DNA from: Candidatus Arsenophonus nilaparvatae str. Hanzhou
GTDB taxonomy: Bacteria > Pseudomonadota > Gammaproteobacteria > Enterobacterales > Enterobacteriaceae
Assembly (NCBI RefSeq): GCF_000757905.1
Contig: NZ_JRLH01000018.1
Length of the DNA: 32,000 bases
Strand: one strand, 5' to 3'
In this document: positions 1 to 17,999 of the stretch, piece after piece
Layout: every line of letters begins with the position of its first letter
How positions within the stretch are numbered: position 1 is the stretch's first letter
Notes under the pieces: model-generated
Database searches by the model: none
What the model was told of the DNA's origin: nothing
The model's input: only the letters and a program-made list of their open reading frames with translations
Position numbers and translations under genes: made by a program

Positions 1-162
1 AAAAAATTACACAAATTAAGTTTAAAAAAATAATTTTTTAATAAAATAAACATTTTACAAATATTTATGACATTTAAATATACCTGGTAATTTTGGTGTG
101 TTAAATACTCTATCATACCATCAACTTGTAATAGAGATTGTTCCTAACAATAGGGGTTTTAT

Positions 163-843
163 ATGAAAAAAAATAAAATAATTATTAAATTTAACCAAGA
201 TGTTATTCAATCTAGAAAAAATAATAAATTATTATTAAAACCATTAGCTTTACAAAATCAATTATTTAACCAATTTATTTATATTCCTGTCGTACCTGAT
301 GATATATTACAAACTCAAGGTCAAATAAATAACATTAATTTTGCTAGCCTCAGTGGCATGTTTTATATTAAAGGATCGGAATCGCTACTTCCCAACGAAA
401 AACAACAATTATTAAAAGCGATTAACGGCTATGACTTTATCGAATATGCTGAACTAGAATGCACACAACTAGCCTCATCAACTTTGTCAGGTTCTGAACA
501 ACTAAACGATACCGAAACACCCGATTTTACTAAATTACAAGAATACAAATTAGGCATAGGAGAACTATGGACAGGCATTGATATGGAATATGCTTGGTCT
601 CTTGGCGTAGCAGGTAAAGGTATCCGTATTGCTGATATCGAGGCAGCTTTTAATTACCAACATATTAATTTGAAAAGAGACAATTTTATTCCACTGGTTG
701 TCAGCGATGATAACGATGAGTATGAAATTAATCATGGTACGGCCGTAGCGGGTGTTATGTATGCAAAAGATCTGGCCTTTGGTGTAAAAGGAATGGTACA
801 TGATGCTGATGCACTTTATGTACAATGCCGTTATGTTGAATAG
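163..843 (+). pseudogene. S8 (subtilisin-like) serine protease, N-terminal fragment severed by prophage insertion
   Basis: 226-aa ORF with a catalytic Asp box (GKGIRIADIEAAF) and His box (HGTAVAGV) but no Asn or Ser box. The last codons (CRYVE-stop) run into phage-derived dif-like DNA. The missing Asn and Ser boxes are at 9312-9989. Confidence 0.8.
815..841 (+). other. attL: hybrid dif-like site (host XerC-side arm TTTATGTACAA, then phage central TGCCG and XerD-type arm TTATGTTGAAT)
   Basis: TTATGTTGAAT matches the E. coli dif XerD arm TTATGTTAAAT (recalled) at 10/11. The host-side arm is a poor XerC arm (6/11 against the phage arm GGTTCGCACAA). Confidence 0.6.
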
Positions 844-873
844 CCGTCTGCGAAAATATCTCCTCGCAGACGG
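844..873. repeat. Perfect hairpin (10-bp stem CCGTCTGCGA / TCGCAGACGG, 10-nt loop) lying between the two inverted dif-like sites
   Basis: The inverted repeat was read directly. It sits at the apex of the proposed attP forked hairpin. Confidence 0.85.
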
Positions 874-878
874 CGGCC

Positions 879-906
879 ATTTATACATAACGCTATTGTG
901 CGAACC
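879..906 (-). other. Inverted dif-like site (second attP half): the reverse complement reads GGTTCGCACAA-TAGCG-TTATGTATAAAT
   Basis: 896-906 (TTGTGCGAACC) is the exact reverse complement of the XerC-type arm at 9312-9322 and in every 52-bp repeat. The XerD-type arm resembles TTATGTTAAAT with one extra base. Confidence 0.65.
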
Positions 907-944
907 TGCGGTTATGTCGATCTAGGTAGCCTGACTTGACGCTA

Positions 945-985
945 AGTCCAAATAGGGGGTTTTTGATTAGTGGAACAACCGCAAT
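945..985 (+). other. Putative (+)-strand replication origin / gpII nicking region
   Basis: AGTCCAAATAGGGGGTTTTTGATTAGTGGAACAACC resembles the f1 origin core as I recall it (GAGTCCACGTTCTTTAATAGTGGACTCTTGTTCC). Shared elements are AGTCCA, a T-run, and A(T)TAGTGGA. It lies in the non-coding region upstream of the replication module. Confidence 0.4.
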
Positions 986-1188
986 ATCGAATTTATCAGG
1001 TTCTGGTAACAATTCTCTACTTATCAATCACGAGTTTCGCACCAATAAAAAAACGCTCTATTTTTACGTCTAATTCAGCATAATATATAAATAGAAAAAA
1101 TCTCATAAATTAAAAACAACTTATTGTAATTTAAGTAAATTTATACCTCTTAGTAAGTTACAGGTTAATCATTGTTTTGACGCCATTT

Positions 1189-1422
1189 CTAGAATTTTAT
1201 ATGTCCGTGCGAAACTCGTGTCAATGCGGGAAGTTTTGTATCTTCAAAATAGGCTACTTCAAGATTATCCGTATAAATAAGCATTCCAAACTCATTTTCT
1301 CTCATTGTCACAAAGCGGCGATTAACTGTATTAAACAGGGTATAACCGATAACGTCAGGGTTATTTTTTCTAAATTCAATTTCTAGTTCTTTTAGTTGTT
1401 TTATTATTTTTTTCTTTTCCAT
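1189..1422 (-). CDS. Hypothetical 77-aa phage protein, downstream of the repressor on the same strand
   Basis: The ORF has protein-like composition (MEKKKIIKQLKELEIEFRKNNPDVIGYTLF...), whereas the overlapping + strand ORF 1177-1386 looks like junk. The RBS is weak and no family was recognised. Confidence 0.45.
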   Translation of the reverse strand: MEKKKIIKQLKELEIEFRKNNPDVIGYTLFNTVNRRFVTMRENEFGMLIYTDNLEVAYFEDTKLPALTRVSHGHIKF

Positions 1423-1459
1423 TTACATTAGCCATTTGTTAATTAAATGTTACATAATC

Positions 1460-1491
1460 AAGAGTACATGACTCTTTAATTATGTACTCTT
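1460..1491. repeat. 10-bp perfect inverted repeat AAGAGTACAT ... ATGTACTCTT (12-nt spacer) between the repressor gene and the 77-aa ORF
   Basis: Read directly. A GCGGA/TCCGC mini-hairpin follows at 1494-1504. This could be a terminator, an attenuator or an operator. Confidence 0.5.
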
Positions 1492-1528
1492 GTGCGGAAT
1501 CCGCATTATTTTACATATTTTATTATGT

Positions 1529-1861
1529 TTATTGATTTTTATTTAACATTTCTTCAGCTTGATTTATCAGACTCATACCTTTACTTATTTTTTTGATTAC
1601 TTCTTGATCTTCTAATGGCAAGTTATTTATTACTTTTATTAAATAATTAGTGTCAGTTGATTTTTTATTATAGATAAGCTCATCAACTGAACAATTTAAA
1701 GCGGTGCTGATTGCGATAATTGATTGAATAGTTGGATTTTTTTGTTCATTTCTTTCTATCTTTGATAATTGAGAGAATGATATTTGTGTTTTTTCGGCTA
1801 ACTCTTCTCTAGTCATTCCTAAAGCTTCTCTCCTTGTTCGTATATTATCACCTATAGCCAT
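1529..1861 (-). CDS. XRE/Cro-CI family HTH repressor (RstR-like position, divergent from gene II)
   Basis: 110 aa. Canonical XRE HTH: IRTRREALGMTREELAEKTQISFSQLSKIERNEQKNPTIQSIIAISTALNCSVDELI. Confidence 0.85.
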   Translation of the reverse strand: MAIGDNIRTRREALGMTREELAEKTQISFSQLSKIERNEQKNPTIQSIIAISTALNCSVDELIYNKKSTDTNYLIKVINNLPLEDQEVIKKISKGMSLINQAEEMLNKNQ

Positions 1862-1916
1862 AAAAATTCTCTCTTGTGAGTCATTTATAGAAATAATAAC
1901 TTATTTATGAATAGTA

Positions 1917-1951
1917 AGTTGACTATTTAAAGATAGTTGACTATATATAAT
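1917..1951 (+). promoter_or_regulatory. Candidate gene II promoter with two direct AGTTGACTAT repeats (possible repressor operators)
   Basis: AGTTGACTAT occurs at 1917-1926 and 1935-1944. TTGACT (1919-1924), a 17-nt spacer and TATATA (1942-1947) form a sigma70-like promoter in the divergent region. Confidence 0.4.
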
Positions 1952-1979
1952 CACTATTAGTATTCATAGAGTGGTTATT

Positions 1980-3263
1980 ATGATTGATCTTCTTGAGCTT
2001 CAGATTCCATTTAAAGATGAGTATGTGATGAGAACATCTCGTGATAGGGAGCATGGAGGAGGCTCTATCGATTTTATGCAGATTGCTAAATTAAGTGGGG
2101 TTCGGTTGTCTGCTCGTGATGTGGAATTTGAAATAAAAGGGGATTTATCTGTTCAGGGATTAGCGCATCCTTTTGAATCGTTACCAACGCATTTTGCCAG
2201 TTTGGGCATGAAAATTTATCAGGGAACTCATTTGATTTTCCCGCGTGTCAATCTTAAGGCTTCACCCGCCAAGCTCTTACAGGGGCATAATGTATTTGGT
2301 TCAACCAATATTGCATTATGTGGCTTGGAGTTAATGACTAATTTAGCGGTTTCCATGCCACATCTTTTTAATTTGTTAGATGTCGAGAATAGCGAAGTTT
2401 CTGAGCTTCATACAACGTTATCAGTAAGATTACCAACGGAAAGTATTTGTAAGCAGGTGATTGCTTATTTTAAGAATATCAGTCATGGACAAACCAAAGC
2501 CACGAAATCAAACGATCATGAATCCACCGTTTATTTTAATCGTGGTTCTAAACACAGGGAATTGTGTATTTATTACAAAGCGCTTGAACTGGCAAAACGT
2601 TTTGGTGAAATACAAAGAAAATTACGGGTTAATCCCAATGATGAGGTGTTGCTTAATCAGTTTGCGATTTTAAATAATAAACGTTTGACGGATTTTGCCA
2701 ATAACCTGTTGAGATTAGAAGGGCGATTAAAAAAACGTTTTTTAAAAGATAATCAGATTCCGATTAATTTTTCTGCGCTTTGCCTTTATCAACAACAATA
2801 TGAACGTAGTGGGGCTAATTTAATTTACGATCTGTGGATGAAAAGTTTTGATGATTTGTTGACGGCACTGAGGGGAATGGAAATGAATATTTATGATGAC
2901 GAACATATTTTTGAACGATTAAAATCTCATTATTATTCTACCACGCCAAAAGGCAACATTTCCTATGCTAAAGCTCAACGGATATTTGGTTTTTATCGTC
3001 GTTTAGTTAATGAAGGTTATTTAAATGTTTTTAATTCTCTGGCAAGAAGAACATTTTATGATAATTTAACTTTATTAACGAATATTGGCCTCAGCAAATC
3101 ACAATTACAAAATCTCACCGGCGATAAATCTAACGTCATTCCCTTTTATAAAGTTATCCATATCGATTTTTCTCAACAACGGCCTGACTGGTATGTCGAG
3201 CCAGTGAGTGTTTTTGAACGTCAGAATACTATTTATCCATTTAAACAAGTTGCAAACGCTTAA
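1980..3263 (+). CDS. Ff-type replication initiator/nickase gpII
   Basis: From ATG 1980 the product starts MIDLLELQIPF. It shares long colinear blocks with M13/f1 gpII as I recall it: SARDVEFEIKGDLSVQGLAHPFESLPTH, KASPAKLLQGHNVFG, ISHGQTKATKS, MNIYDD, FGFYRRLVNEGY, QRPDWYVEPV. The track start GTG 1971 is less likely. Confidence 0.9.
   Translation: MIDLLELQIPFKDEYVMRTSRDREHGGGSIDFMQIAKLSGVRLSARDVEFEIKGDLSVQGLAHPFESLPTHFASLGMKIYQGTHLIFPRVNLKASPAKLLQGHNVFGSTNIALCGLELMTNLAVSMPHLFNLLDVENSEVSELHTTLSVRLPTESICKQVIAYFKNISHGQTKATKSNDHESTVYFNRGSKHRELCIYYKALELAKRFGEIQRKLRVNPNDEVLLNQFAILNNKRLTDFANNLLRLEGRLKKRFLKDNQIPINFSALCLYQQQYERSGANLIYDLWMKSFDDLLTALRGMEMNIYDDEHIFERLKSHYYSTTPKGNISYAKAQRIFGFYRRLVNEGYLNVFNSLARRTFYDNLTLLTNIGLSKSQLQNLTGDKSNVIPFYKVIHIDFSQQRPDWYVEPVSVFERQNTIYPFKQVANA
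2883..3263 (+). CDS. Nested in-frame gene X analogue (C-terminal 126 aa of gpII)
   Basis: An internal in-frame ATG (MNIYDD...) sits at the position homologous to the M13 gene X start. It is preceded by GAGGGG (2870-2875) at a 7-nt spacing. ATG 2877 is an alternative start. Confidence 0.45.
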   Translation: MNIYDDEHIFERLKSHYYSTTPKGNISYAKAQRIFGFYRRLVNEGYLNVFNSLARRTFYDNLTLLTNIGLSKSQLQNLTGDKSNVIPFYKVIHIDFSQQRPDWYVEPVSVFERQNTIYPFKQVANA

Positions 3264-3283
3264 ATCAAGAAAGGTGAACCATT

Positions 3284-3577
3284 ATGGCTGCATTGCCCTT
3301 ATATCAAACAGTGATTAGTGGAAAAGTGACCCGTATCAGTACGTCTAATGATGGACATGTTTATACCACCGTTATTTTACCCGCACCTGATCCTTATTCT
3401 AAACCGCCGGTTGTAAAAATTCGTTCTAAACGGCGTGTGGGGGCGATTGATTCAGAAGTGAATGAATTGGTTTGCCGAATTTCCGGTTTTGAACGTTCGT
3501 TTAGATATCACGATAAACAGACAGGGCAACCCTTAACGGGGCATAACGTTGAAATGTTTCTCGATTTAGTGGAATAG
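3284..3577 (+). CDS. Putative ssDNA-binding protein (gene V position)
   Basis: 97 aa, with RBS AAAGGTGA, immediately after gII as in Ff phages. Size and basic composition fit. I see no direct similarity to M13 gpV. Confidence 0.45.
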   Translation: MAALPLYQTVISGKVTRISTSNDGHVYTTVILPAPDPYSKPPVVKIRSKRRVGAIDSEVNELVCRISGFERSFRYHDKQTGQPLTGHNVEMFLDLVE

Positions 3578-3586
3578 GTGATCGCT

Positions 3587-3811
3587 ATGGCTACTCCGGA
3601 AAATAATATTGTCGGTGAGATTTGTTCGAAAGTCACGAATGACTGCCAAACTATTGAATTGACGATAAAAGAGTTGCCATATCAGGAACTCCTTAATATT
3701 GATTATTCAGTCGCGGCACAATTTTGGGGGATTCCTTTTACCTCGGTAATCGGACTTTGGTTATTTTCCAAAGGTCTTGGTGCAGTAATTAATATGTTTA
3801 AAGGTGTTTAA
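3587..3811 (+). CDS. Small membrane protein, candidate minor coat protein (gVII/gIX position)
   Basis: ~74 aa from ATG 3587 (RBS AGGTGA 5 nt upstream). C-terminal hydrophobic helix IPFTSVIGLWLFSKGLGAVI. It lies between the gV-like and gVIII genes. Confidence 0.4.
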   Translation: MATPENNIVGEICSKVTNDCQTIELTIKELPYQELLNIDYSVAAQFWGIPFTSVIGLWLFSKGLGAVINMFKGV

Positions 3812-3813
3812 TT

Positions 3814-4095
3814 ATGTTGACTAAATTAGGTTTAAATAAGTTTTTTAACAAACTTAATCTACGCACTTTATATTTAAGTGTAGGTATTGGTTTATTCGGT
3901 GCTTTTAGTTCTGCAATGTCATTTGCAGAAGCCGCAACAGGGACAGGTACGGCTATTGATTACACGCAATTAACGAACTCCCTTAATTTTAATTCTGTCA
4001 TGACGGGTATTTTAGCCGTTGCAGGCGGTCTGATTGCCGTTTATGCAGGCATGGCAGGCGTTAAGTGGGTTTTACGTATGGTACGTGGTGCGTAA
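3814..4095 (+). CDS. Major coat protein (gVIII-type)
   Basis: A signal peptide ending SFA/EAATG is followed by an acidic N-terminus, a hydrophobic core (VMTGILAVAGGLIAVYAGMAGV) and a basic C-terminus (KWVLRMVRGA). This is the classic inovirus major-coat architecture. Confidence 0.75.
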   Translation: MLTKLGLNKFFNKLNLRTLYLSVGIGLFGAFSSAMSFAEAATGTGTAIDYTQLTNSLNFNSVMTGILAVAGGLIAVYAGMAGVKWVLRMVRGA

Positions 4096-4114
4096 CAAGG
4101 AGAGGGGCAAATTA

Positions 4115-5665
4115 ATGCCCCTTTATATCGATGCTGACAATCGGATTTTATTTTCTGTGTTTTTTGTGGGGGCTGTTATGTGCCTGGGCAGTCATACAAG
4201 GGTTGGATTGATATATTTTTTCTATTTTGCCGTTTTATCTGTTTTTTATCCTGTTTTAGTAAGCGCAAGTTCTATTGCTGTTAATCATTCACTGTCTAAT
4301 AAATATCCATTTTATGCTTACGAAAATAGTCAATATTATGAGGGTCATGATAGACGTTCGATAGCATTACGCGCGTTTGAGGATGAGAAAGTAAAAAAAG
4401 CCGGCGTGGTTTATTGTATGCCTTCGCGTTCTTGCAAATTTAAAAAAATCACTTCGATTTCTGATGTGGGTATTTTTAATAATGTTCGGGTGGATTATGT
4501 GGGTACAATTATTGGTGGTTTAGGTGATACATTAGAAGGCGCAGGATTTTATACCGTTTCAGTTCGCGAGAATGATAATTTTGATAAATCTAAATCGGAT
4601 GATGCAATTGAAAAATCCACTCCGGAAGAAATTTGTAAGAAGAAACCGCCTTTATCCGGCTCTCAAAGTGGCGTTAGGAGTATTTCAGGTGAACGTTATA
4701 TTTATGTTGACGGTTGTGAGTATATAGCCACGGGTGATGTGCTTATTTGTTTTGATAAAAGCGATATTTGTAATGCAACATCTTGGAAACCGACAGGGGA
4801 AGTAGCAGAAGGTAAAGGTTATGGTAAAACGAATAATAACGATGAGACGACGTTAGCCCATTCCTTTTGTGCGTCTCAGTATGGTACTTATGGCTCGATT
4901 GGCTCTTCAGATGAGTTTGTTGTGACGGACAGATGTAAACCCGTTTTTAAAGAGGATAAATTTTTAGGTTGGGTGGGTAGTGGTGCTTATTCTGATATGA
5001 ATAATCCGCCTGATTTTCCTGATACGGGAATATTTAGTGTTGTACCTAATCCCGATTATGCCATTTCAGATTCGGCTTCTGCTAAAGATAAGGTGGAATA
5101 TAATCTTAATTATTTAGCGCTTCATCCTGATTTGGATTTAGCTAGATATCCGTTACCTGTTTATTCTGATTTACCGCTTTCTTCACCGTCAGGGAGTGGT
5201 TCAATAAATTTAGGGAGTACAGCCCATTCCGTTGATGCAGGTTCGAGTATTGCAGGAAGTTTAGTGAATACCGAGAGTGCCACGCATTCATTGTCTTCAT
5301 CCGGAACCAGTCAATCGGGTGTCAGTTCATCTTCGGGTGCTTCTTCAAATTTTGGGCAATCTTCTGGTTCAAAAGGTAATGGTCAGGGAACCGATTTATC
5401 GCATCCCGATAATAATGAACCGGATTTAGATTCACCCACCGCAGAATCGGTATTATCGCCATTACAGAATCTCTTTCCTTTTTTGAAAAATTTTAATTTA
5501 CCAGAACGAGCAGCGTCATGCCCAGTAGCGACTTTTGAGGTGTTTGAGCAGCATTTTGTCATTGATGCTCATTGTACCTTGTTTGAAAGCATTCGTGGTT
5601 TGTTAACCCTGTTTTCAATGATTATCTGGTCATTTCTGGGATTACGGATTGTATTGTCTTCTTAA
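4115..5665 (+). CDS. Adsorption / minor coat protein (gIII-type)
   Basis: ~516 aa from ATG 4115 (RBS AGGAGA). Cys-containing N-terminal domains are followed by a long Ser/Gly-rich linker (SSPSGSGSINLGS...SSSGASSNFGQSSGSKGNGQG) and a C-terminal membrane anchor (LLTLFSMIIWSFLGLRIVLSS). Confidence 0.7.
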   Translation: MPLYIDADNRILFSVFFVGAVMCLGSHTRVGLIYFFYFAVLSVFYPVLVSASSIAVNHSLSNKYPFYAYENSQYYEGHDRRSIALRAFEDEKVKKAGVVYCMPSRSCKFKKITSISDVGIFNNVRVDYVGTIIGGLGDTLEGAGFYTVSVRENDNFDKSKSDDAIEKSTPEEICKKKPPLSGSQSGVRSISGERYIYVDGCEYIATGDVLICFDKSDICNATSWKPTGEVAEGKGYGKTNNNDETTLAHSFCASQYGTYGSIGSSDEFVVTDRCKPVFKEDKFLGWVGSGAYSDMNNPPDFPDTGIFSVVPNPDYAISDSASAKDKVEYNLNYLALHPDLDLARYPLPVYSDLPLSSPSGSGSINLGSTAHSVDAGSSIAGSLVNTESATHSLSSSGTSQSGVSSSSGASSNFGQSSGSKGNGQGTDLSHPDNNEPDLDSPTAESVLSPLQNLFPFLKNFNLPERAASCPVATFEVFEQHFVIDAHCTLFESIRGLLTLFSMIIWSFLGLRIVLSS

Positions 5666-5677
5666 GGGGATTAAGTG

Positions 5678-5965
5678 ATGTATGCCTTGATTGTATCCGC
5701 ATTTAATTTTTTATTAGGGTTCGTTTTTAGAACGCTGGCCATTAAATTTATTGTGTTTTCGGCGCTGTTTTTAGTGGTTACTGAATTTGTCCCCGTTTTA
5801 TTAGCTTTACTACCCACGTCAACGAATTTGCCGGAGTTGATTGGTCAACTGCCTGATAGTGTCTGGTATTTTATGAATCTGTTTGCCGTGATAACGGGGA
5901 TGAAGATTGTGATTTCGGCTTATCTGACCCGTTTTATTGTGCGCCGTATTCCGGTGATAGGGTGA
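5678..5965 (+). CDS. Hydrophobic minor coat protein (gVI-type)
   Basis: ~95 aa, multi-helix hydrophobic protein located between the gIII and gI analogues. RBS AAGGGGA. Confidence 0.6.
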   Translation: MYALIVSAFNFLLGFVFRTLAIKFIVFSALFLVVTEFVPVLLALLPTSTNLPELIGQLPDSVWYFMNLFAVITGMKIVISAYLTRFIVRRIPVIG

Positions 5966-5968
5966 TGT

Positions 5969-6826
5969 ATGGCGATTTCAGCTTATGTCGGTATTCCAAG
6001 AAGCGGTAAATCTTACGAAGTAGTTTGTAACGTTATTATTCCGGCTTTTATGAAAGGTCGCCGGATTGTGACGAATATCTACGGCATTTCAGCAGAAAAA
6101 ATCAGGGTTTATTGTCTTGATAAAAAGAAAGCCGATGAATATCAATTAGGTGAGATTATCTGCGTTGATAATGAACAGGTTAAAAAGGCTGATTTTTTTC
6201 CATTTAAAACAGAAACGGGTATCGCAGAAGACACCTTTTGTCAGGCAGGTGATTTAATTTGCATTGATGAAGCGTGGCGAATTTGGGAAAACGACAAGAT
6301 ACCGCAACAACATCGCTCATTTATTGCCGAACATGGTCATTTTGTTAATATAGAAGGTGTTACCTGTGATTTAGTGGTATTAAATCAGTCGGTGGCTAAT
6401 TTACCGCGTTTTATCAAAGACCGGATTGAGACGACGTATAAAATGACCAAATTGGTGGCGTTAGGGTTACGTCATCGCTATCGGGTCGATGTTTATTCAG
6501 GGATTAAACTGTTTAAAAATAATCGCACTTCATCTTATCAGTGCAGTTATGACAAGGTGATTTTTCCACTTTATCATTCTTATGAAGGGGGGCAAGGACA
6601 AGAGCAGGTGGTGGATAAGCGCCAGAGTATTTTTAATCAATCTAAATTCTGGTTATTAACATTAGGACTGTTGTTGCTGGTCATAGCCTCCGTTTATTTT
6701 CTTTATCAATTTTTTGGTGGTAACGGGATAACGCCCAAAAATCGGCCTGTCTCTGAATCAGTTGATAAATCAGTGACTACCCAAAAATCACATCAAAATC
6801 CGTCGCCACAAAATTTATCCACTTAA
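5969..6826 (+). CDS. Zot/gpI-like assembly ATPase (gene I analogue), ending at an in-frame TAA (6824-6826)
   Basis: N-terminal Walker A (GIPRSGKSYEV), an ITN motif (RRIVTNIYGI) as in Zot, a Walker B-like CIDEAW, and a single TM (FWLLTLGLLLLVIASVYFLYQFF). At 285 aa it is shorter than gpI/Zot. Confidence 0.8.
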   Translation: MAISAYVGIPRSGKSYEVVCNVIIPAFMKGRRIVTNIYGISAEKIRVYCLDKKKADEYQLGEIICVDNEQVKKADFFPFKTETGIAEDTFCQAGDLICIDEAWRIWENDKIPQQHRSFIAEHGHFVNIEGVTCDLVVLNQSVANLPRFIKDRIETTYKMTKLVALGLRHRYRVDVYSGIKLFKNNRTSSYQCSYDKVIFPLYHSYEGGQGQEQVVDKRQSIFNQSKFWLLTLGLLLLVIASVYFLYQFFGGNGITPKNRPVSESVDKSVTTQKSHQNPSPQNLST

Positions 6827-6997
6827 TGGCGTATTGCGGGCAAAATTAGTCAGCGTGGTCAGGCGTGGGTGGTGTTACTTAATCAGCAGGGGCAGATTCG
6901 ACTTGAGCCATTATCGCAGTTTCGTTTTTATGGTTTGCGGATGACGGGCAACATTGACGGTGAGGTTGTCACAACCTATTCGGGAGGCATGAAATGA
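6827..6997 (+). other. Same-frame continuation of gene I after the TAA (56 sense codons), ending at a TGA that overlaps the gene IV ATG
   Basis: Hand translation gives WRIAGKISQRGQAWVVLLNQQGQIRLEPLSQFRFYGLRMTGNIDGEVVTTYSGGMK-stop, with stop 6995-6997 overlapping ATG 6994. The combined length (342 codons) approaches M13 gpI (~348 aa). Confidence 0.7.
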
Positions 6998-8211
6998 AAA
7001 GGGCATGGATAGGGGTGTTGTTAACGGTAAGTCCCTTGTTAATGGCTAAAGGCGTGATGATGGAACTGGATAACGTGCCTTTACCGCAAGCGTTGAATGT
7101 GCTTTATCGACAGGTTTTTGAACGTCCGTTTATGTTATCGCCAGAATTAATCAATGACCCTCGTAAAGTGACTTTTCGTATTACGCCAGAAATTGATGAA
7201 CGGGCTTTTATTAAGCGTTATTTGAATAATTTACAGATTGCCATTCATGAACGTAATGGGATTGATTATTTAGTTTTTTTTACGCCAAAAACACCCACAG
7301 TAATCAGGGAAACCTATGTTTATCAGCCCCGTTATCGCTCAGTATCGTATTTATCGGATTTATTACGCAGCCAGTTTGATGGTAATTTTAATTCGTCTCG
7401 TAGTGGTATTTCAGTGGGGCAAATCGCACCAGAAAAAGCCGTGGCGGGGACGGCTTCGGATTTTCTGAACCGGACAGGGGATGTACTGGTTTATTATGGT
7501 ACTAAAGCCGATATTGCCCGATTAAAAATATTGTTACCTAAAATCGATACTGTAACGGATGAAGTGGTGGTTTCTGCCTATGTCTTTGAGGTACAAACCG
7601 CTGAGCGTAATGGGTCAGGCTTGGCATTGGCTGCCAAATTGGTTTCCGGTAAATTTAATGTTGGTATCGGTAAAGAGGCAGGATTTGATAATTTTGTTCG
7701 CTTTAATTTAGGTTCATTAGATGCGTTATATGAATTGTTCCGTACTGATAGCCGTTTTCATGTGGTGAGTTCACCTAGATTAAGAGTGAAGAATGGGGCG
7801 CAGGCATCATTTTCTGTCGGCTCAGATGTGCCTGTATTAGGTAAGGTAAGTTATGCTGATAATAAGCCTGTCCAGTCGATAGAATATCGCTCTAGTGGGG
7901 TAATTTTAAATGTACGTCCGCAAATCCGGCAACAGGGTGTTGATTTAACCATTGACCAGCAATTATCAAATTTTGCTAAAACTGAAACGGGTGTCAATAA
8001 CAGTCCAACGTTGATTAAACGCCAGGTCAATACGCAAGTGAGCGTTGCCGATGGTGATATTATTTTGTTAGGCGGTTTGGCTGAAAATAAAGTAACCGAA
8101 GCGGATACCGGATTTTCGTTTTTGCCGAAGGGCTGGTTTACCAGTGCTTCGACAGAAAATAATAAAACCGATATTTTAGTGATTTTACAGGTGAAGAAGG
8201 TTCAACGATGA
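6994..8211 (+). CDS. Secretin (gIV-type phage export channel)
   Basis: 405 aa with a signal peptide. The C-terminal secretin domain contains VVSSPRLRVKNGAQASFSVGSDVPVLG, GVILNVRPQI and VSVADGDIILLGGL. Confidence 0.9.
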   Translation: MKRAWIGVLLTVSPLLMAKGVMMELDNVPLPQALNVLYRQVFERPFMLSPELINDPRKVTFRITPEIDERAFIKRYLNNLQIAIHERNGIDYLVFFTPKTPTVIRETYVYQPRYRSVSYLSDLLRSQFDGNFNSSRSGISVGQIAPEKAVAGTASDFLNRTGDVLVYYGTKADIARLKILLPKIDTVTDEVVVSAYVFEVQTAERNGSGLALAAKLVSGKFNVGIGKEAGFDNFVRFNLGSLDALYELFRTDSRFHVVSSPRLRVKNGAQASFSVGSDVPVLGKVSYADNKPVQSIEYRSSGVILNVRPQIRQQGVDLTIDQQLSNFAKTETGVNNSPTLIKRQVNTQVSVADGDIILLGGLAENKVTEADTGFSFLPKGWFTSASTENNKTDILVILQVKKVQR

Positions 8212-8215
8212 AGGC

Positions 8216-8252
8216 AGGCAGCGTACCACAGCGTTAGCGAGGAACGCTGCCT
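8216..8252. terminator. Hairpin after gene IV (9-bp stem AGGCAGCGT/ACGCTGCCT, 19-nt loop containing GCGTTAGCG)
   Basis: Read directly. No T-tract follows, so it may be structural (packaging or minus-strand origin) rather than a terminator. Confidence 0.35.
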
Positions 8253-8414
8253 TGCATGAAGAGGCAAACCGACGTAGCCGGTAAGAAAATAGAACGCCGG
8301 TTTTGTTGTATTACATGTTGTTTGTTAAGCGTTAAGTTATTTTTTTTGGCGCTGTATAGCCAGACTCCATATCTGACTACACAGCTATCACATAAACCTT
8401 ATAAGGAGGTCTAT

Positions 8415-8693
8415 ATGACTGTGTTCGATCCTACTCAATATCCAGAGTTACGCAATCTTTTTCCTGAATTAACGCCAGTGCAGTTTGAAACGGCACTGTT
8501 ATTTGCTTTTGGTATTCCACAAAAAGAAATCTCAGTGTTGCGTTCAGTGGCGTATAAAGTGGTGAGACAGACGATAACAGAAGCCAGAATGAAATTTGAG
8601 CCAGCGTCATTGACGGGATTATTAACGGTATTTCATGTTCGTTTAGTGTTATTTGCTTTGTATGATAGCCAACAACGCATTCGTAAGACATAA
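8415..8693 (+). CDS. Small LuxR/GerE-type HTH protein (92 aa)
   Basis: Strong RBS TAAGGAGG 6 nt upstream of ATG 8415. LTPVQFETALLFAFGIPQKEISVLRSVAYKVVRQTITEARMKF resembles the LuxR C-terminal HTH pattern (LTxRExExLxLxAxGxxxKEIAxxLxxSxxTVKxH). The upstream extension from 8256 is unlikely. Confidence 0.55.
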   Translation: MTVFDPTQYPELRNLFPELTPVQFETALLFAFGIPQKEISVLRSVAYKVVRQTITEARMKFEPASLTGLLTVFHVRLVLFALYDSQQRIRKT

Positions 8694-8707
8694 AAAAGCG
8701 GATTAGT

Positions 8708-8739
8708 CTAGGTGCGTTAAATGCACCTAGGGTATTTTA
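8708..8739 (+). terminator. Rho-independent terminator after the LuxR-like gene
   Basis: 8-bp stem CTAGGTGC / GCACCTAG, 7-nt loop, followed by GGTATTTTATT. Confidence 0.6.
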
Positions 8740-9120
8740 TTCGATGAGATAATATCGATTTGGTATTAGGTCATAACTTCTAAAATTAATCGTAAATACC
8801 GCCACTTCTGATTTTGAGTCGCATCACACCATATCAGGGAAACCCGCTACTTTTATGGCGGGCTTTTTTTATGTTTTAAAATGTCCGTCAGGACATGTAA
8901 GGCGGCAGATTGAAATCGCAAAGATAACCGACTGCAAAACCGCCGAAGCCAGGGGGGGACTTATCGGGTAGCAAGGAACCCCCGCGTTAGCGTTCCTGCC
9001 AAGCCATCTTTTTACGATAAATAAAGCGACTCAGCAGTTTGAGGGTCGAAGACAAGCGAATCGTTTAGCGACAGATTGATTTTTTTATTTGCTTTTGTTT
9101 ATTGTTTAATTTCATGCTAA

Positions 9121-9322
9121 CTCAATAAAATTAATATTCCGTAAAATGCCATTAAGGTTCGCACAATATTTACTCAATAAAATTAATATTCCGTAAAATG
9201 CCATTAAGGTTCGCACAATATTTACTCAATAAAATTAATATTCCGTAAAATGCCATTAAGGTTCGCACAATATTTACTCAATAAAATTAATATTCCGTAA
9301 AATGCCATTAAGGTTCGCACAA
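9121..9322 (+). repeat. Tandem array: 3.9 perfect copies of a 52-bp unit, each ending in the XerC-type arm GGTTCGCACAA
   Basis: The unit is CTCAATAAAATTAATATTCCGTAAAATGCCATTAAGGTTCGCACAATATTTA, at 9121-9172, 9173-9224 and 9225-9276. The fourth copy starts at 9277 and diverges after ACAAT into host DNA. Confidence 0.95.
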
Positions 9323-9339
9323 TGGTATTTCTGTTAAAC
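9312..9339 (+). other. attR: complete dif-like site GGTTCGCACAA-TGGTAT-TTCTGTTAAAC
   Basis: 11-6-11 architecture. It matches E. coli dif (GGTGCGCATAA-TGTATA-TTATGTTAAAT, recalled) at 9/11 in each arm. The XerC arm is phage/repeat-derived; the central region and XerD arm lie in subtilase coding sequence. Confidence 0.7.
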
Positions 9340-9989
9340 CTTATGATGCCGCAGGCGGGATCATAAGAGGATTACAACATTTAAGAGCGGGTGATATTTT
9401 TATTTACGAATTATCTATCCAATCCAAACCAGATGATGATACAACTCAAGTACCTGCTGATTATTGCCAATCGGTCTGGGATATCACTAAAGCGGCCACC
9501 GATGCCGGTATTATTATTATTGCTGCGGCAGGTAATGGCAGTGAAAATCTGGATGATGATTATTATGCACAATATCGCGATCGCGGTGATAACGGCGCTA
9601 TTCGGGTTGGTGCTGGCTCTAAAAATCAAATATGTCGTTCATTTTCAACTTATGGCAAAACGATGATCCATGTCCAGGCCTGGGGTGATAGTGTCGTAAC
9701 AACCGGCTTTGGTACTTTATACGATGGTGGTCCTAATAATAATTATGCTAGTAACTTTGATGGCACCTCAGCCGCTACCCCAATTGTAGCTTCAGCAGCA
9801 ATTGGCATTCAATCATGGTATAAACAACAGACTGGCCAGGTTCTCACACCACGTGAAATGCGAAGTCTGTTGATAGAGACCGGCACACCACAACGACCTG
9901 GTTTTATCAATAACCATATTGGACCGCTGCCAAATGTTCGTAATGCAATTAATACATTACAACGACGTTTACAACAACAAAAAGCATAA
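9312..9989 (+). pseudogene. S8 serine protease, C-terminal fragment (Asn and Ser catalytic boxes)
   Basis: The frame of ORF 9663-9989 is open upstream to 9312 (stop TAA at 9309-9311). Hand translation: GSHNGISVKPYDAAGGIIRGLQHLRAGDIFIYELSIQ...GIIIIAAAGNGSENL (oxyanion Asn box)...FDGTSAATPIVASAA (Ser box). The first 4 codons are phage-arm-derived. Confidence 0.8.
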
Positions 9990-10070
9990 CCTAATGGATA
10001 ACTTGCTAAGATATAATATGACTTACCTTTCAGGCTAACTTATGGGGCTAGAGTATTTTTTAGCATGCGC

Positions 10071-10093
10071 ATATCCTCCCTTAAGGAGGATAT
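10071..10093. terminator. Hairpin downstream of the subtilase stop (9-bp stem ATATCCTCC/GGAGGATAT, loop CTTAA)
   Basis: Read directly. There is no clear T-tract. Confidence 0.4.
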
Positions 10094-10794
10094 CCATGTT
10101 TAAATGTGAAAAAATTAAAAGTTATTGATTAATATTTAAGTTAAGCTGTCAATTTAGCGCAACGAAAATAATTAGAATGATGGCTGATTAACTTTGAAAA
10201 CAATAAATAAAATATCAGCATAAATATTTGTTCAAGTAAAAATCACTGTAGTTAAAAATATTGTTTTCAGCATCTTTTTATTTCTTAGAGTGAATATAAA
10301 AATGCCGTCATTAAAAATATATTAAATAATCTTAATAAAGTGCCTAAAATTACTATAAAAATAAATTATAGTGATGTGATTTATCACACCTTAATATATT
10401 TATCAACAAGACTAAGAGGATACCTTTCTTCAACTAGATAAATTTAAAGCATTTTGAAGAATAACTTCAACACTATTTTCTACCGAATAACACAGCTTAT
10501 TAGTTTTCCCTTTTCTATGAGCTATCTTTCCAGATCACAAACCCAGTTTTTTCATTCTATAATACATTTCCCCTTCAAGCCTTTTTTTAATTAAACTGAA
10601 TCAACATATTCATGGCATTAAATTACATTATTTATACATTTATTTTGTAATAATTAAAAATAAATGTATGAATTATTATATTTTTACATATGAAAATTTA
10701 ATACAATTAAATTACATACTAATTTATAGTTAAAAATAAAATATTAAAAAATACATATATTATTTTCAGATATTATACCAAGGGGAAATTGGTT

Positions 10795-11574
10795 ATGCCT
10801 AAAATTGTTTCTGTATCCCATTATCCAGCTACTATCTTAAAAGATGATGCAGCTAAAAAAACTAGCACTGATGATATGTTAGCGAAACTATATCCCGACT
10901 TAACCATGCAATTTGCCAACCCATCATCAATGAGAGTTAAACATGATAAACTAGCAACAAATAGTGACCGATTACATGCATCTGCAAAAATAAAGTCTTT
11001 GTTCATATCTGGTGCCGGTAGACATGATCCTGATAGAGCCATAAATCAGCAGCAACAAATAAGATGCGAACATGCTCTATCACATATCATGGAATCTGCC
11101 TACAACAAGAGCCCGACATTTAGACGGTTATTTAATTATGGTTATGACAATATTCTGCATGATGGTGGTTGGGTATTAGCCGCAGATGAAGATTTTGGCA
11201 CGACTATCACATCCGAACAGATAGCAGCGACTAATGGTAGAAAAATTATTTCATTAAATATGGATCCTATTGATGAGCCAGATTCTTATAATACTTACCA
11301 AACAGAAAACGGCAGTCATACCCCTTTTAGTTTAGCTCGTTCATTTATGCATGAAGTCGTGCACGCTTTAACAATGCTTCCCGATAAAGATGGTGAACAT
11401 GAAAGAGGACCTGTTGTCGAATATACAAATATCATACTTAAAGAAATGGGTGATAACCAACCAGCAAGATTTAAATATGAATTAGACGATAATTATCATG
11501 ATATAAACCAAGGAAATACACCTTTCACAATAGAAACATTTGAATTACCAATTTTAACATACACACCAAAATAA
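10795..11574 (+). CDS. HExxH zinc metalloprotease, effector-like (possibly NleD/M91-like)
   Basis: ~259 aa from ATG 10795 (RBS AAGGGGA). It has the motif FMHEVVHAL and a downstream Glu-rich segment (DGEHERGPVVEYTNIILKEMG). No signal peptide. The gene is isolated between ~800 bp and ~250 bp of AT-rich non-coding DNA. Confidence 0.6.
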   Translation: MPKIVSVSHYPATILKDDAAKKTSTDDMLAKLYPDLTMQFANPSSMRVKHDKLATNSDRLHASAKIKSLFISGAGRHDPDRAINQQQQIRCEHALSHIMESAYNKSPTFRRLFNYGYDNILHDGGWVLAADEDFGTTITSEQIAATNGRKIISLNMDPIDEPDSYNTYQTENGSHTPFSLARSFMHEVVHALTMLPDKDGEHERGPVVEYTNIILKEMGDNQPARFKYELDDNYHDINQGNTPFTIETFELPILTYTPK

Positions 11575-11821
11575 GTAGAATAAAAAAACATTAATACAAG
11601 CTAAATACCTCACTTGTCCAAGCCTGAAGCTTTGCAATATCTATACCCTACATTGATATCAACTGTTCTAAACCGGACAAAATATACTGTTATCATTCAG
11701 CTTTTCAATAACAGCAACCCAGCATTTTTGCCTATCACTTGATCATAAATTTTATTCAAGAGAGGAACTGATCTGCTGGGTATTGATGTTTACTATTACA
11801 AATCAAACCACAATCTAGCTA

Positions 11822-12841
11822 TTATTTTTTACCATAACCTTGTGGATTCTGACATTGCCAACGCCATCCATCAGCAGCCATCTGTTGAATTGAGCGAGTG
11901 GCTTTCCATCCCAAATCACGTTCAGCTTTAGCAGAACTTGACCAACATTCAGCAATATCACCTGGTCGGCGAGGACTAATTTCATAGGCGATTTTTTTAC
12001 CACAAGCTTCTTCAAATGCTTTCAGCATCTCTAATACACTTGTCCCATTACCTGTGCCTAAATTATAAATGTGTAAACCAGGCTTAAAACCAACTGATTT
12101 AAGTGCCGCAATATGCCCATCAGCGAGATCCATGACATGAATATAATCACGCACTCCTGTGCCATCTGGGGTAGGATAATCATCACCAAAAATCATCAAT
12201 TTCTGCTGCCGACCAATGGCTACCTGAGTGATATAAGGCGTCAAATTATTAGGTATACCTTGCGGATCTTCCCCCATCGTGCCGGATGGATGTGCCCCAA
12301 CCGGATTAAAATAACGAAGCAGGGTAACCGACCAACTATTATCAGCATACTGGAGATCCGATAAACAGCGCTCTACCATAAATTTACTGCTACCGTATGG
12401 ATTAGTGGTATTGCCAATCGGAAACTCTTCGGTGATAGGCACCGTTGCCGGATCACCATAAACGGTGGCAGAAGAGCTAAAAATAACATTTTTTATACCA
12501 GCCCGATGCATACTACGCGCTAATACCAGCGCGCCATTGACATTATTATCATAATATTCAAGAGGCTTAGTAACTGATTCACCAACCGCTTTTAAGCCAG
12601 CAAAATGAATAACGGCTTTAATAGTATGGTTGGAAAAAATAGTGTCTAATAATTTTTCATCACGTACATCTCCATGATAAAAAACCGGACGACAACCCGT
12701 TAATGTTTCTATTCGCGCCAATACTTCACTACTGGCATTACACAAATTATCTAAAATAACAGGCTGCATACCCGCTGCCAACATCTGAACGCATGTGTGA
12801 CTACCAATATAGCCCATACCACCTGTTACTAATATTTCCAC
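11822..12841 (-). CDS. galE: UDP-glucose 4-epimerase
   Basis: From GTG 12841 (RBS AGAGG) the product is MEILVTGGMGYIGSHTCVQ..., 339 aa. It has the Rossmann GxxGxxG, YGSSK (the YxxxK catalytic motif) and a GalE-like C-terminus. The 36-codon upstream extension in the track is unlikely. Confidence 0.9.
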   Translation of the reverse strand: MEILVTGGMGYIGSHTCVQMLAAGMQPVILDNLCNASSEVLARIETLTGCRPVFYHGDVRDEKLLDTIFSNHTIKAVIHFAGLKAVGESVTKPLEYYDNNVNGALVLARSMHRAGIKNVIFSSSATVYGDPATVPITEEFPIGNTTNPYGSSKFMVERCLSDLQYADNSWSVTLLRYFNPVGAHPSGTMGEDPQGIPNNLTPYITQVAIGRQQKLMIFGDDYPTPDGTGVRDYIHVMDLADGHIAALKSVGFKPGLHIYNLGTGNGTSVLEMLKAFEEACGKKIAYEISPRRPGDIAECWSSSAKAERDLGWKATRSIQQMAADGWRWQCQNPQGYGKK

Positions 12842-16839: not shown

Positions 16840-17688
16840 CTAAGCGGCATTCTTTAGTTCATGATATTTTTGATGTGGCGTTAAATAACCAATCGTTGAA
16901 TGGCGTCGATAATAATTATAAAACTGAATGTAATTTTCAACTTCATAGACAACAGATTGATGATTCATAAACGATAAATGGTTAAGCTTTTCTGTCTTTA
17001 AACTCCTAAAAAATCTTTCCATCACGGCATTATCGAGGCAATTACCTCGCCGACTCATGCTTTGAGTTATTTTCCGTTCAAAGAGGTGCGCCCTAAACTC
17101 CTCCGATGAATATTGGCAACCTTGATCTGAATGGAACATCAAACTTGTCGTATCCGGTAATTGCCGTTCAATGGCGTTATCTAAGGCTTCTTTCACTAAT
17201 TTCGTATCCGGTTTTGTTGATAAGGCATAACCAATAACTTCTTTGGTGGCTAAATCTAACACGCAAGCTAAATAGCTCCACCCATAGTGATATCTAATAT
17301 ACGTGATATCACCGACATAATAGTGATTATGCTGTTGAGGGGAAAATTGTCGTTTAAGCAAATTAGGGGCATATCGATGTTCGTTACCCGATGAGGGATA
17401 GTAATGCTTTTTCGTTGGTCTAATTGCAACTAATTGATTTAATTTCATGATGTTTGATATTTTATAAGTGCCAATCTGGCACCCTAAACCCTTTAACTCA
17501 GCTTGGATACGTCTTTTGCCATAAGTTTGGCCCGATGTATAAAAAATACGTTTGATTTCGCCACACAGCCTTTCATTTTCAACTGTCGGTATTTTCGTTT
17601 CATAATAAAAACTACTACTGCTTACTTCAAAAAGATGGCATAACTCAGTGACCGTAAAATTGGGGTACATAATTTTCATTTGCTTCAC
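16840..17688 (-). CDS. IS3-family transposase OrfB (DDE/integrase core), expressed as an OrfAB fusion by -1 frameshift
   Basis: Motifs HSDQGCQYSS and GNCLDNAVMERFFRSLKTE are present. The -1 frame is open from the slippery site (17736) through this ORF; hand translation gives KKSRGLLHPRQSKLKIVKQMKIMYP. Confidence 0.85.
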   Translation of the reverse strand: MKQMKIMYPNFTVTELCHLFEVSSSSFYYETKIPTVENERLCGEIKRIFYTSGQTYGKRRIQAELKGLGCQIGTYKISNIMKLNQLVAIRPTKKHYYPSSGNEHRYAPNLLKRQFSPQQHNHYYVGDITYIRYHYGWSYLACVLDLATKEVIGYALSTKPDTKLVKEALDNAIERQLPDTTSLMFHSDQGCQYSSEEFRAHLFERKITQSMSRRGNCLDNAVMERFFRSLKTEKLNHLSFMNHQSVVYEVENYIQFYNYYRRHSTIGYLTPHQKYHELKNAA

Positions 17689-17999
17689 GATTTTGAGTTT
17701 TGATTGTCGAGGATGAAGTAAGCCGCGGCTTTTTTTAATATGTCATTATCCCTCTGAGCACGCTTAAGTTTTGCTTCTAATTCTTGTATGCGCTGTTGCT
17801 CGGGCGTTAACGCTTTTGATTTTACAGGCGTATTCCCATTCAACTCGGCAAGATATTGTTGCTTCCAGCGCGATACGGCAGATTTACCCGCACCGGATAT
17901 TTTTTCAACTTGGATATTGCTATATCCACCTTCAACCATGAGTTTTGCATATTCCAGTTTTTGCTTTGCGCTAAAGGTCACTTTTACTTTTCGTGGCAT
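17685..17999 (-). CDS. IS3-family transposase OrfA (HTH)
   Basis: 104 aa. It has an HTH plus a leucine-zipper-like segment (QRIQELEAKLKRAQRDNDILKKAAAYF), typical of IS3/IS911-type OrfA. Confidence 0.85.
   Translation of the reverse strand: MPRKVKVTFSAKQKLEYAKLMVEGGYSNIQVEKISGAGKSAVSRWKQQYLAELNGNTPVKSKALTPEQQRIQELEAKLKRAQRDNDILKKAAAYFILDNQNSKS
17729..17736 (-). other. Programmed -1 ribosomal frameshift motif A AAA AAA G
   Basis: The minus strand reads TTAAAAAAAGCC within the OrfA codons L-K-K-A. This is the same class of heptamer as IS911/IS150. Confidence 0.7.

Follow-up and report, generated by a model that had tools for sequence, protein, structure and literature searches.

The chromosome of Candidatus Arsenophonus nilaparvatae, a symbiont of the brown planthopper, carries a complete 8.5-kb prophage of a filamentous, M13-like inovirus, which occupies positions 819–9322 of the 32,000-nt stretch of contig NZ_JRLH01000018.1 that was analyzed here (the window). 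We consider it likely that this prophage is an IMEX (a mobile element that integrates by exploiting Xer) of the CTXphi type, inserted at a dif-like site by the XerC and XerD proteins of its host. A CTX-type mechanism driven by host Xer is the best explanation because of the junctions between phage and host DNA, the inverted pair of dif-like sites in the phage attachment region (attP), the conserved fold predicted for that region and the lack of a recombinase domain among the phage open reading frames (ORFs) scanned. The target of the copy in the window is not the chromosomal dif but coding sequence, a degenerate dif-like site within the ORF of an S8 (subtilase) peptidase, and the insertion inactivates this gene. 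The features that make the element stand out are its insertions away from dif, including this one in a coding gene, the presence of identical tandem dimers at three loci, a stop codon in gene I (gI) that all copies share and an apparent scar of the host dif.

Results

The insertion splits the S8 peptidase gene into a 5′ part at 163–818 (plus strand), which corresponds to positions 1–86 of the Peptidase_S8 profile, and a 3′ part at 9323–9989 (plus strand), which corresponds to profile positions 227–281 and contains the AAAGNG and GTSAATP motifs; the ORF at 163–843 matches the N-terminal third of Peptidase_S8. Joining 163–819 to 9324–9989 yields a 440-residue protein with 88% identity to the intact protein of A. 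apicola and 93% identity to that of Ca. A. phytopathogenicus. The empty site predicted from the two joints, GATGCACTTTATGGTATTTCTGTTAAAC, is present uninterrupted and in frame in Ca. A. phytopathogenicus, where the DNA reads ...GATGCTGATGCACTTTATGGTATTTCTGTTAAACC... and the gene neighborhood matches; the S8 gene is also intact in A. apicola. Because the predicted empty site occurs exactly in this sister species, the element is an insertion and not core genome, in agreement with a preliminary description of this DNA that had been made from the sequence alone.

The positions of the joints were derived by comparing attL, attR, attB and the inter-prophage junction at three loci. A dif scan and the comparison with the empty site show that attL (808–841, plus strand) is a hybrid, composed of the host XerC-like arm GATGCACTTTA (808–818), the phage 12-nt centre TGTACAATGCCG (819–830) and the phage XerD-like arm TTATGTTGAAT (831–841). 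Likewise, attR (9312–9339, plus strand; dif scan) combines the phage XerC arm GGTTCGCACAA with the host centre TGGTAT and the host XerD-like arm TTCTGTTAAAC, and is the best dif-like site of 11-6-11 layout in the whole window. From both joints and the empty site, attB is deduced to be GATGCACTTTA / TGGTAT-TTCTGTTAAAC, and from the junction between the tandem copies in CP158507.1 (a complete Ca. A. nilaparvatae chromosome), which reads AAGGTTCGCACAA TGTACAATGCCG TTATGTTGAAT, attP is deduced to be GGTTCGCACAA / TGTACAATGCCG-TTATGTTGAAT. The crossover therefore coincides with the border between the XerC arm and the central region, exactly the position at which XerC cuts dif, and a dif-like site is regenerated on the right. 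Crossover within a shared ACAATG was considered and rejected, as it would put the protease gene out of frame and as the tandem junction of CP158507.1 reveals a shared core of ATG. The dif-like flanks reported in the preliminary description are thus real, although they mark a pseudo-dif in a coding gene and not the chromosomal dif, and the start that it gave for the element, 826, lies 7 nt too far in according to the cleavage model, which gives 819–9322. In an 11-6-11 comparison with the E. coli dif, attB matches at 7/11 positions of the XerC arm and 9/11 of the XerD arm, with a centre of 6 nt. Sites as good as this one occur ~1 to 9 times per 75,844 background positions, depending on the reference dif and with the attB of the sister species included in the count.

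In CP158507.1, tandem head-to-tail phage dimers are present at three loci, the S8 gene among them. One dimer lies at the true dif, beside hipBA, where attL reads AATTCGCATAA / TGTACA... and attR reads GGTTCGCACAA / TATTTA-TTATGTTAAAT; together, these joints identify the host dif as AATTCGCATAA-TATTTA-TTATGTTAAAT. Another lies inside a tailed-prophage region at a near-dif sequence, ATTTCTTATAA-TATTTA-TTATTTTAAAT, and the S8 gene is the most degenerate target of the three. The crossover border is identical at all three loci, and the copy at the true dif rules out the idea that the phage avoids dif through an incompatible centre. In A. nasoniae, the left end of a 98%-identical phage adjoins AGGTCGCTATA/, an intergenic and poorly dif-like sequence, and in A. 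apicola a related phage sits at the genuine dif, with attR reading GGTTCGCATAA-TGTATA-TTATGTTAAAT. Targets other than dif are outside of the usual picture of Xer-exploiting elements in the literature consulted (e.g. PMC4246890), and one YpfPhi copy is apparently located away from dif in a draft E. coli genome (PMC7307601).

Insertion at such sites might be taken as a sign of entry without Xer, either through the phage HUH endonuclease gpII or by illegitimate recombination at the ATG microhomology, with the dif-likeness of the S8 site a coincidence. A shared core of just 3 nt, the weak XerC arm of the S8 site and the poorly dif-like AGGTCGCTATA/ of the A. nasoniae copy would all be in keeping with this idea. 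Nevertheless, we regard it as very improbable: four independent insertions, one of them at a genuine dif, have their crossover at an identical point in the phage XerC arm, the host sequence on the right is a 9–11/11 XerD arm at the exact spacing in all three loci for which it is known, background sequence very rarely contains sites of this kind, and the candidate gpII nick motif lies ~140 nt from the joint.

The attachment region itself supports a CTX-type reaction. In CTXphi, attP1 and attP2 are inverted dif-like sites with centres of ~12 bp and 5–7 bp, which are nonfunctional as duplex DNA; the plus strand folds both into the true substrate, attP(+), strand exchange is carried out by XerC alone, integration cannot be undone and tandem prophages are required to produce phage (PMC4246890). 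The Arsenophonus phage has an equivalent pair, in which the site with the 12-nt centre, GGTTCGCACAA-12-TTATGTTGAAT, is followed ~40 nt downstream by an inverted site with a 5-nt centre, GGTTCGCACAA-5-TTATGTATAAA. The latter, which was found by the dif scan at 880–906 on the minus strand and reads GGTTCGCACAA-TAGCG-TTATGTATAAA, base-pairs with the right-end XerC arm of the phage once the genome is circular or tandem. The predicted fold of this junction (–32 to –33 kcal/mol, z = –7 to –9) is a forked hairpin with duplex XerC and XerD arms, consisting of an XerC-arm stem, a 5–7-nt bulge on the 5′ side, an XerD-arm stem and a terminal G+C-rich hairpin (GCCGTCTGCGA...TCGCAGACGGC, 843–874, plus strand). 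The same architecture recurs with differing sequences in seven related phages, making eight in all: an E. coli prophage that also occurs as an episome, a Salmonella element, a triple array in Xenorhabdus, phages of Morganella and A. apicola and two inoviruses from saliva metagenomes. The terminal hairpins of these seven are of unrelated sequence, and the arms of each phage follow the dif of its presumed host. Integrase, resolvase and transposase domains were absent from all scanned ORFs (those encoding at least 77 residues) in 819–9322. The CTXphi-style apparatus for lysogeny postulated in the preliminary description is borne out by these inverted sites, which are predicted to fold into a hairpin, and by the lack of a recombinase gene among the scanned ORFs.

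The right end of the phage consists of a 52-nt tandem repeat (9120–9323, plus strand, 3.9 copies), with the phage XerC arm GGTTCGCACAA at the end of each copy. Where copies meet inside the repeat, the sequence is GGTTCGCACAA/TATTT/ACTCAAT..., that is, the XerC arm followed by the first 5 (or 6) bases of the host dif centre TATTTA; a 5-nt match of this kind is expected by chance at roughly 1 in 250 to 1 in 1,000 in AT-rich DNA. The A. apicola relative, whose host dif has the centre TGTATA, lacks the 52-nt repeat. A dif centre within the repeat fits the regeneration of phage genomes from a tandem array integrated at dif, and the repeat could be the scar of such a passage or a second attP of the double-strand type. 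The simplest reading would be a history in which 52 nt spanning the right joint of a dif-integrated prophage were duplicated, a further copy integrated alongside this prophage, and rolling-circle replication over the tandem array then brought the scar into the phage genome, as CTXphi hybrid genomes arise. All copies in CP158507.1 contain two repeats. At the S8 locus, the window holds one prophage with four repeats, and CP158507.1 holds two prophages with two repeats each, a gap in copy number that may be a real difference or may reflect a collapsed short-read assembly.

These repeats also bear on a different route of entry, in which host Xer would act on the double-stranded replicative form of the phage, as it does for VGJphi and TLCphi, and the insertion would be reversible. 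The site used would be GGTTCGCACAA-TGTACA-ATGCCGTTATG or the repeat-borne GGTTCGCACAA-TATTTA-CTCAATAAAAT, the centre of which is that of the host dif. Phages of the VGJ and TLC types are common (PMC4246890), and the junction sequences fit a single-stranded DNA (ssDNA) hairpin and a double-strand, XerC-first reaction at the same arm equally well. However, the first of these sites, when read with a 6-nt centre, has an XerD arm of 3/11, and every observed attL joint contains TGTACAATGCCG, therefore the repeat-borne site was not used. Furthermore, the inverted site and the fold conserved in eight phages are unexplained by a double-strand mechanism, and an XafT/DUF3653-like factor was not detected in domain and profile searches. 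Integration of the double-stranded form consequently appears improbable.

Comparison of the copies revealed a uniformity that extends to a defect. The window copy and the six copies in CP158507.1 differ by zero base substitutions; aside from repeat number, the differences consist of 1-nt deletions in CP158507.1, which are probably homopolymer errors of long-read sequencing. Because all of these are single-base deletions, none of which occurs in the window copy, the secretin and gIII genes annotated as split in CP158507.1 are likely artefacts, and we consider it less likely that they are real pseudogenes. The seven copies share an in-frame TAA in gI (6824–6826), a codon that is CAA in A. apicola and A. 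nasoniae, which shortens the product to 285 residues instead of 342; the 56 C-terminal residues thereby lost are the best-conserved part of its periplasmic tail. Beyond the stop, the reading frame stays open for 56 codons, which differ from the A. apicola orthologue at 1/56 residues, and it overlaps the gIV start in the usual way. Because these codons remain open and all copies carry the TAA, the stop must be recent and yet older than the spread to three loci. The nonsense codon implies that the lineage is probably impaired in virion assembly, and the spread may have occurred without virions, with help or with read-through.

One could argue that the phage is nonetheless a fully competent temperate phage, which tolerates the TAA by read-through, a dispensable C-terminus of pI or a helper, and that the loci were filled by extracellular reinfection. 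In the window copy every other gene is intact, the codons past the stop have been maintained, and YpfPhi and CTXphi normally superinfect and form multi-copy arrays. On the other hand, TAA is read through less readily than either of the other stop codons, the lost segment belongs to the periplasmic domain of pI that is thought to contact pIV in Ff phages, and every copy, with zero substitutions, carries the stop; full competence is therefore doubtful. Alternatively, the phage may have lost the need for virions, or the ability to make them, and spread within the symbiont genome in the manner of a replicative transposon, a reading that we put forward tentatively. Rolling-circle replication by gpII from tandem prophages would then free ssDNA circles, which XerCD would reinsert at dif-like sequences, genes included. 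The copies with zero substitutions, the shared gI nonsense codon and the host-dif scar in the repeats fit such a process.

Gene calls within the element were based on profile searches with Pfam, PHROGs and NCBIfam. From ~1.9 to 8.7 kb, every long ORF is on the plus strand, and GC skew is positive. The element encodes a rolling-circle initiator, an ssDNA-binding protein, a small major coat protein and a Zot/pI ATPase on one strand, and its unit length in tandem arrays, 8.40 kb, is within the 6–9 kb typical of inoviruses (Tubulavirales). The replication initiator of the II/X family, gII (1980–3263, plus strand), is identified by Phage_CRI (3e-55), G2P_X_C (2.6e-21) and TIGR01629 rep_II_X (3e-116), and its product is 45–46% identical to gpII of IKe, PEar (Erwinia) and Ff across 96–97% of its length (E ~1e-120). 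Nested within it is gene X (2883–3263, plus strand), which begins at an internal ATG at 2883 behind a GAGGGG ribosome-binding site; its N-terminus aligns with pX of Ff and IKe, and its MNIYDD start consists of the same residues as in Ff pX. Homology of the gII product to Ff gpII, including the MNIYDD start, was a central point of the preliminary description, and it holds, as does the Ff-like gene order with gII/gX and a phage-encoded secretin. Downstream on the plus strand are gV, encoding the ssDNA-binding protein (3284–3577; phrog_8473, 2.6e-29; 47% identity to G5P of the E. coli A37 phage), a small conserved inovirus ORF (3587–3811; phrog_3679; 57% identity to an ORF of the E. coli A37 phage) that probably encodes a minor coat or assembly protein, and gVIII, encoding the major coat protein (3814–4095; Phage_Coat_B, 1.1e-6; phrog_2186, 2e-21). 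These are followed by gIII, encoding the adsorption protein (~4112–5665; phrog_3942, phrog_4150), the start codon of which is uncertain within 4034–4115 and whose orthologue in A. apicola contains PF21443 (G3P_pilus-bind), by a gVI-like minor coat protein gene (5675–5965; DUF2523, with Pfam and PHROGs matches), by gI, encoding the Zot-family assembly ATPase (5969–6997; Zot, 5e-24 for the ORF 5969–6826), and by gIV, encoding the secretin (6994–8211; Secretin, 7.8e-26; phrog_1012, "protein IV of M13", 7.6e-130).

Divergent from gII is the gene of an RstR-like, XRE-family repressor (1529–1861, minus strand; HTH_3, 3.5e-17). Its top NCBIfam model is phage_RstR (NF041951; 9.5e-16), with a score of 58 bits against a curated cut-off of 80, and the alignment, though below this cut-off, spans residues 1–104 of the 108-position model. 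The divergent XRE repressor of the preliminary description thus finds its best match in phage_RstR over essentially the full length of the model, and the gene occupies the RstR position. The control region between the two genes (1862–1979) contains two direct GTTGACTAT repeats (1918–1926 and 1936–1944), read from the sequence, which are candidate operators. Downstream of the repressor gene is an ORF of 77 codons (1189–1422, minus strand), which is present in all phage copies and had no match in Pfam, PHROG or NCBIfam searches. A motif at 960–976 (plus strand), TTTTTGATTAGTGGAAC, resembles the IKe viral-strand origin TGTTTAATAGTGGACTC and is a candidate plus-strand origin and gpII nick site. 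At the opposite end, the large intergenic region is predicted from the sequence fold to form two terminator-like hairpins (8707–8731 and 8843–8862, plus strand), and an Rfam scan of window positions 1–12000 matched no RNA family.

The last gene before attP (8415–8693, plus strand) encodes an accessory 92-residue protein, which the preliminary description had called a LuxR-type regulator. Searched alone against Pfam, this protein matches only Sigma70_r4_2 (E 0.046), which provides no support for that call, but a family profile and the predicted structure do support it at the level of fold. Searched against the PDB, the family profile matches the DNA-binding domain of VraR (E 2e-5) as well as TraR, NarL and LasR, and among 26 family members GerE is matched by 5 and Sigma70_r4_2 by 15 in Pfam. 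The AlphaFold model (predicted local distance difference test score, 86) has NarL, RcsB, GerE and TraR as its top Foldseek matches, with a root-mean-square deviation from NarL of 1.8 Å over 61 residues, although the structural E-values are weak (0.1–0.5). Based on these comparisons, the protein is predicted to be a stand-alone helix-turn-helix regulator with the tetrahelical LuxR/GerE-type DNA-binding fold. Its position beside attP resembles that of XafT, but a role as an XafT-like Xer activator was dropped because of this fold and the lack of a DUF3653 or similar signal. Homologues are confined to insect endosymbionts (Arsenophonus, Fukatsuia, Hamiltonella, Regiella, Sodalis, Phlomobacter and Symbiopectobacterium) and are often present in many copies per genome, plasmids included, which suggests a regulator common to symbiont mobile elements.

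Two other features of the window lie outside of the prophage. Between the S8 peptidase gene and galE is a PipA-family gene (10789–11574; PF07108, 1.3e-59) related to the type III effector proteases PipA, GogA and GtgA. The adjoining stretch at ~10000–10800 has a G+C content of 26%. A. apicola and Ca. A. phytopathogenicus lack the whole 1.8-kb segment at their syntenic loci, and it looks like a separately acquired effector island. In addition, a transposase pair of the IS3 type (HTH_Tnp_1 and rve domains) is located at ~16840–17999 on the minus strand.

Discussion

We propose that insertion of the Arsenophonus phage begins on the circular plus strand, where the right-end XerC arm GGTTCGCACAA, the 12-nt centre and the arm TTATGTTGAAT would pair with the inverted copy downstream to form a forked hairpin that mimics dif. 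No phage-encoded recombinase would participate; host XerC, with XerD bound, would exchange one pair of strands between this hairpin and the chromosomal dif-like site, cutting at the border of the XerC arm and the central region, and replication would fix the insertion. Lysogeny would be maintained by the RstR-like repressor, and upon derepression gpII and gpX would initiate rolling-circle replication from an origin that lies within the prophage, close to its left end. As in CTXphi, a complete phage genome would be regenerated only from a tandem array, and an array of this kind exists at the S8 locus in CP158507.1.

Apart from the junctions, which fit a double-strand reaction equally well, several observations weigh against this proposal. 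The XerC arm of the S8 target matches at only 6–7/11 positions, and the centre TGGTAT of this target has just TG in common with the phage centre and agrees with that of the host dif at 2/6 positions; because of the weak arm and mismatched centre, recognition of this site by XerCD is putative. The inverted sites are spaced by ~40 nt, versus 90 nt in CTXphi. Finally, the window copy is single and, by the CTX-type model, could not yield phage, and its gI is truncated. A hint of filamentous virions with circular plus-strand ssDNA is provided solely by an 8,332-nt Logan contig that begins exactly at the phage junction. A DNA-pattern scan of viral and metagenome collections with the left end of the phage gave no match, a protein scan of the viral collection returned one genome-derived contig only, and megablast of the whole element against GenBank phages gave no match, so that no close phage relative appears to have been sequenced. 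A scan of genome contigs with gpII as the single query recovered only Arsenophonus loci; the wider relatives described below came from a protein search.

With Ff (M13/f1/fd), IKe and PEar, the Arsenophonus phage shares gII with a nested gX, the order gII-gV-coat-gIII-gVI-gI-gIV, its own secretin and an origin-like TAGTGGA. In contrast to these phages, which are episomal and possess no repressor, attP or accessory regulator, it is integrated and has all three. In tblastn searches at a threshold of 1e-3, its secretin is 28–30% identical to pIV of Ff and IKe, gIII matches weakly and only to IKe (28%), and gI, gV, gVI and gVIII have no match to Ff or IKe. Judged from these comparisons, only gII is close to Ff, and the genome-wide similarity seen in the M13/IKe group (genera Inovirus and Lineavirus) is lacking. 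The M13-type morphogenesis genes of the preliminary description are therefore of that type at the family level only. Their nearest counterpart is the module of a rare E. coli dif inovirus of strain A37 (secretin, gI and gVI with 73, 64 and 59% amino acid identity, respectively), which forms a tandem array at dif next to hipBA; strain A37 additionally has it as a 7,439-bp circle (NZ_CP195780.1). The Rep protein of this phage, although divergent, belongs to the same G2P family, and phages of the A37 type occur in 10/5,426 E. coli genomes. They are probably not CUS-1, as none of the genomes listed was recognizable as K1/ST95.

Prophages with an Ff-type gII are found at dif in several genera. The gpII proteins of Xenorhabdus and Morganella prophages, both of which are located at the genuine dif and encode their own secretin, are 80 and 77% identical to that of the Arsenophonus phage. 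In Xenorhabdus sp. SF857 (CP119194.1), three tandem 8.5-kb prophages combine the Ff-type gII with coat genes of the Ff/IKe type (Phage_coatGP8, Phage_Coat_A, G7P), and by its gene content this appears to be a temperate phage that is Ff-like throughout. The A. apicola prophage at the genuine dif has a II/X-family Rep, its own secretin and a CTX-type attP. A mini-element at dif in many Salmonella enterica genomes contains only an XRE repressor, an Ff-type gII (gpII with 53–54% identity), gV and 1–2 small ORFs, has a CTX-type inverted attP pair and a perfect dif at its borders, and looks like an RS1-style satellite of an Ff-type inovirus. Homologues of the II/X Rep are also present on large chromosomal contigs of further genera. 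The saliva-metagenome inoviruses OR148978.1 (2655–2757) and PP511687.1 (2860–2964), which GenBank records as complete, contain unannotated CTX-type attP pairs and are probably temperate; the arms of these pairs (ATTTCGCATAA) are unlike the XerC arm of the enterobacterial dif and resemble a Pasteurellaceae-type dif. The A37, SF857, Morganella, A. apicola and saliva inoviruses, on which we found no paper, all resemble the Arsenophonus phage in their attP pair, their own secretin and a G2P-family Rep, while those with known flanks are all at the genuine dif, and their regulators and cargo differ.

Among characterized phages, CTXphi differs from the Arsenophonus phage in its use of the host EpsD secretin; the latter encodes its own, carries a LuxR-fold protein and not a toxin as cargo, has an Ff-type II/X Rep for which no Vibrio phages were among the tblastn matches, and is found at non-dif targets besides dif. 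Common to both are the lack of an integrase, the folded inverted sites, a crossover at the XerC border, the re-creation of a dif-like site on the right, the formation of tandem arrays, an RstR-type repressor and accessory genes beside attP (PMC4246890). YpfPhi of Yersinia pestis and CUS-1 of E. coli K1 are, by their published descriptions, also similar in size (~8.7 kb), in the position of an RstR homologue and in their replication, morphogenesis and secretion modules; inverted XerC/XerD sites have been proposed to function as in CTXphi, arrays contain 2–4 copies, and accessory ORFs lie by attR (PMC4266046). However, the gII and gV of these dif-integrating phages are <15% similar to those of IKe and M13 (PMC7307601), whereas the Arsenophonus gII is 46% identical to that of Ff/IKe. 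UPphi901 and UPphi are temperate relatives of IKe and I2-2 that integrate at dif by XerCD and have tandem repeats and new accessory genes within what was once the intergenic region (PMC7307601). Their mosaic is the reverse of that seen here, in that morphogenesis is IKe-like (~70% amino acid identity) and gII/gV are YpfPhi-like (PMC7307601), while in the Arsenophonus phage gII is Ff/IKe-like and morphogenesis is not. The authors of that study have argued that IKe and I2-2 derive from an integrating ancestor (PMC7307601).

The preliminary description had presented the combination of Ff-type replication with lysogeny as a hybrid lifestyle that is poorly described or not described. We found no paper on a dif/Xer-integrating phage with this Ff-type gII, nor on Arsenophonus inoviruses, but in view of the published UPphi901 (PMC7307601) and YpfPhi/CUS-1 (PMC4266046) and of the Ff-type-gII prophages at dif, that claim was overstated: the element is an uncharacterized, CTX-type, Xer-exploiting inovirus built of exchangeable modules. 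As a natural CTX-type case with targets beyond dif, one of them in a protein-coding gene, it offers, through its empty site and three independent sets of junctions, a series of substrates (dif, near-dif and poor dif) with which to define what XerCD and a folded attP require. For taxonomy, it adds to the evidence that the non-integrating Ff/IKe phages are the exception in a largely temperate, module-swapping radiation.

For Arsenophonus, our studies indicate that inoviruses are active, recently multiplied mobile elements in several species, on chromosomes and plasmids. The phage family also leaves relics, as in the metagenome-assembled genome of Arsenophonus sp. aDvar, where a related prophage beside the dif-like AATTCGCATAA-TATATA-TTATGTTAAAT is heavily decayed, with gII, gV, gIII and gIV fragmented and a segment of the secretin gene inverted. 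These inoviruses can inactivate genes and bring with them a symbiont-restricted regulator of the LuxR fold, and if their spread does resemble that of a replicative transposon, it would add to the loss of genes by the symbiont.

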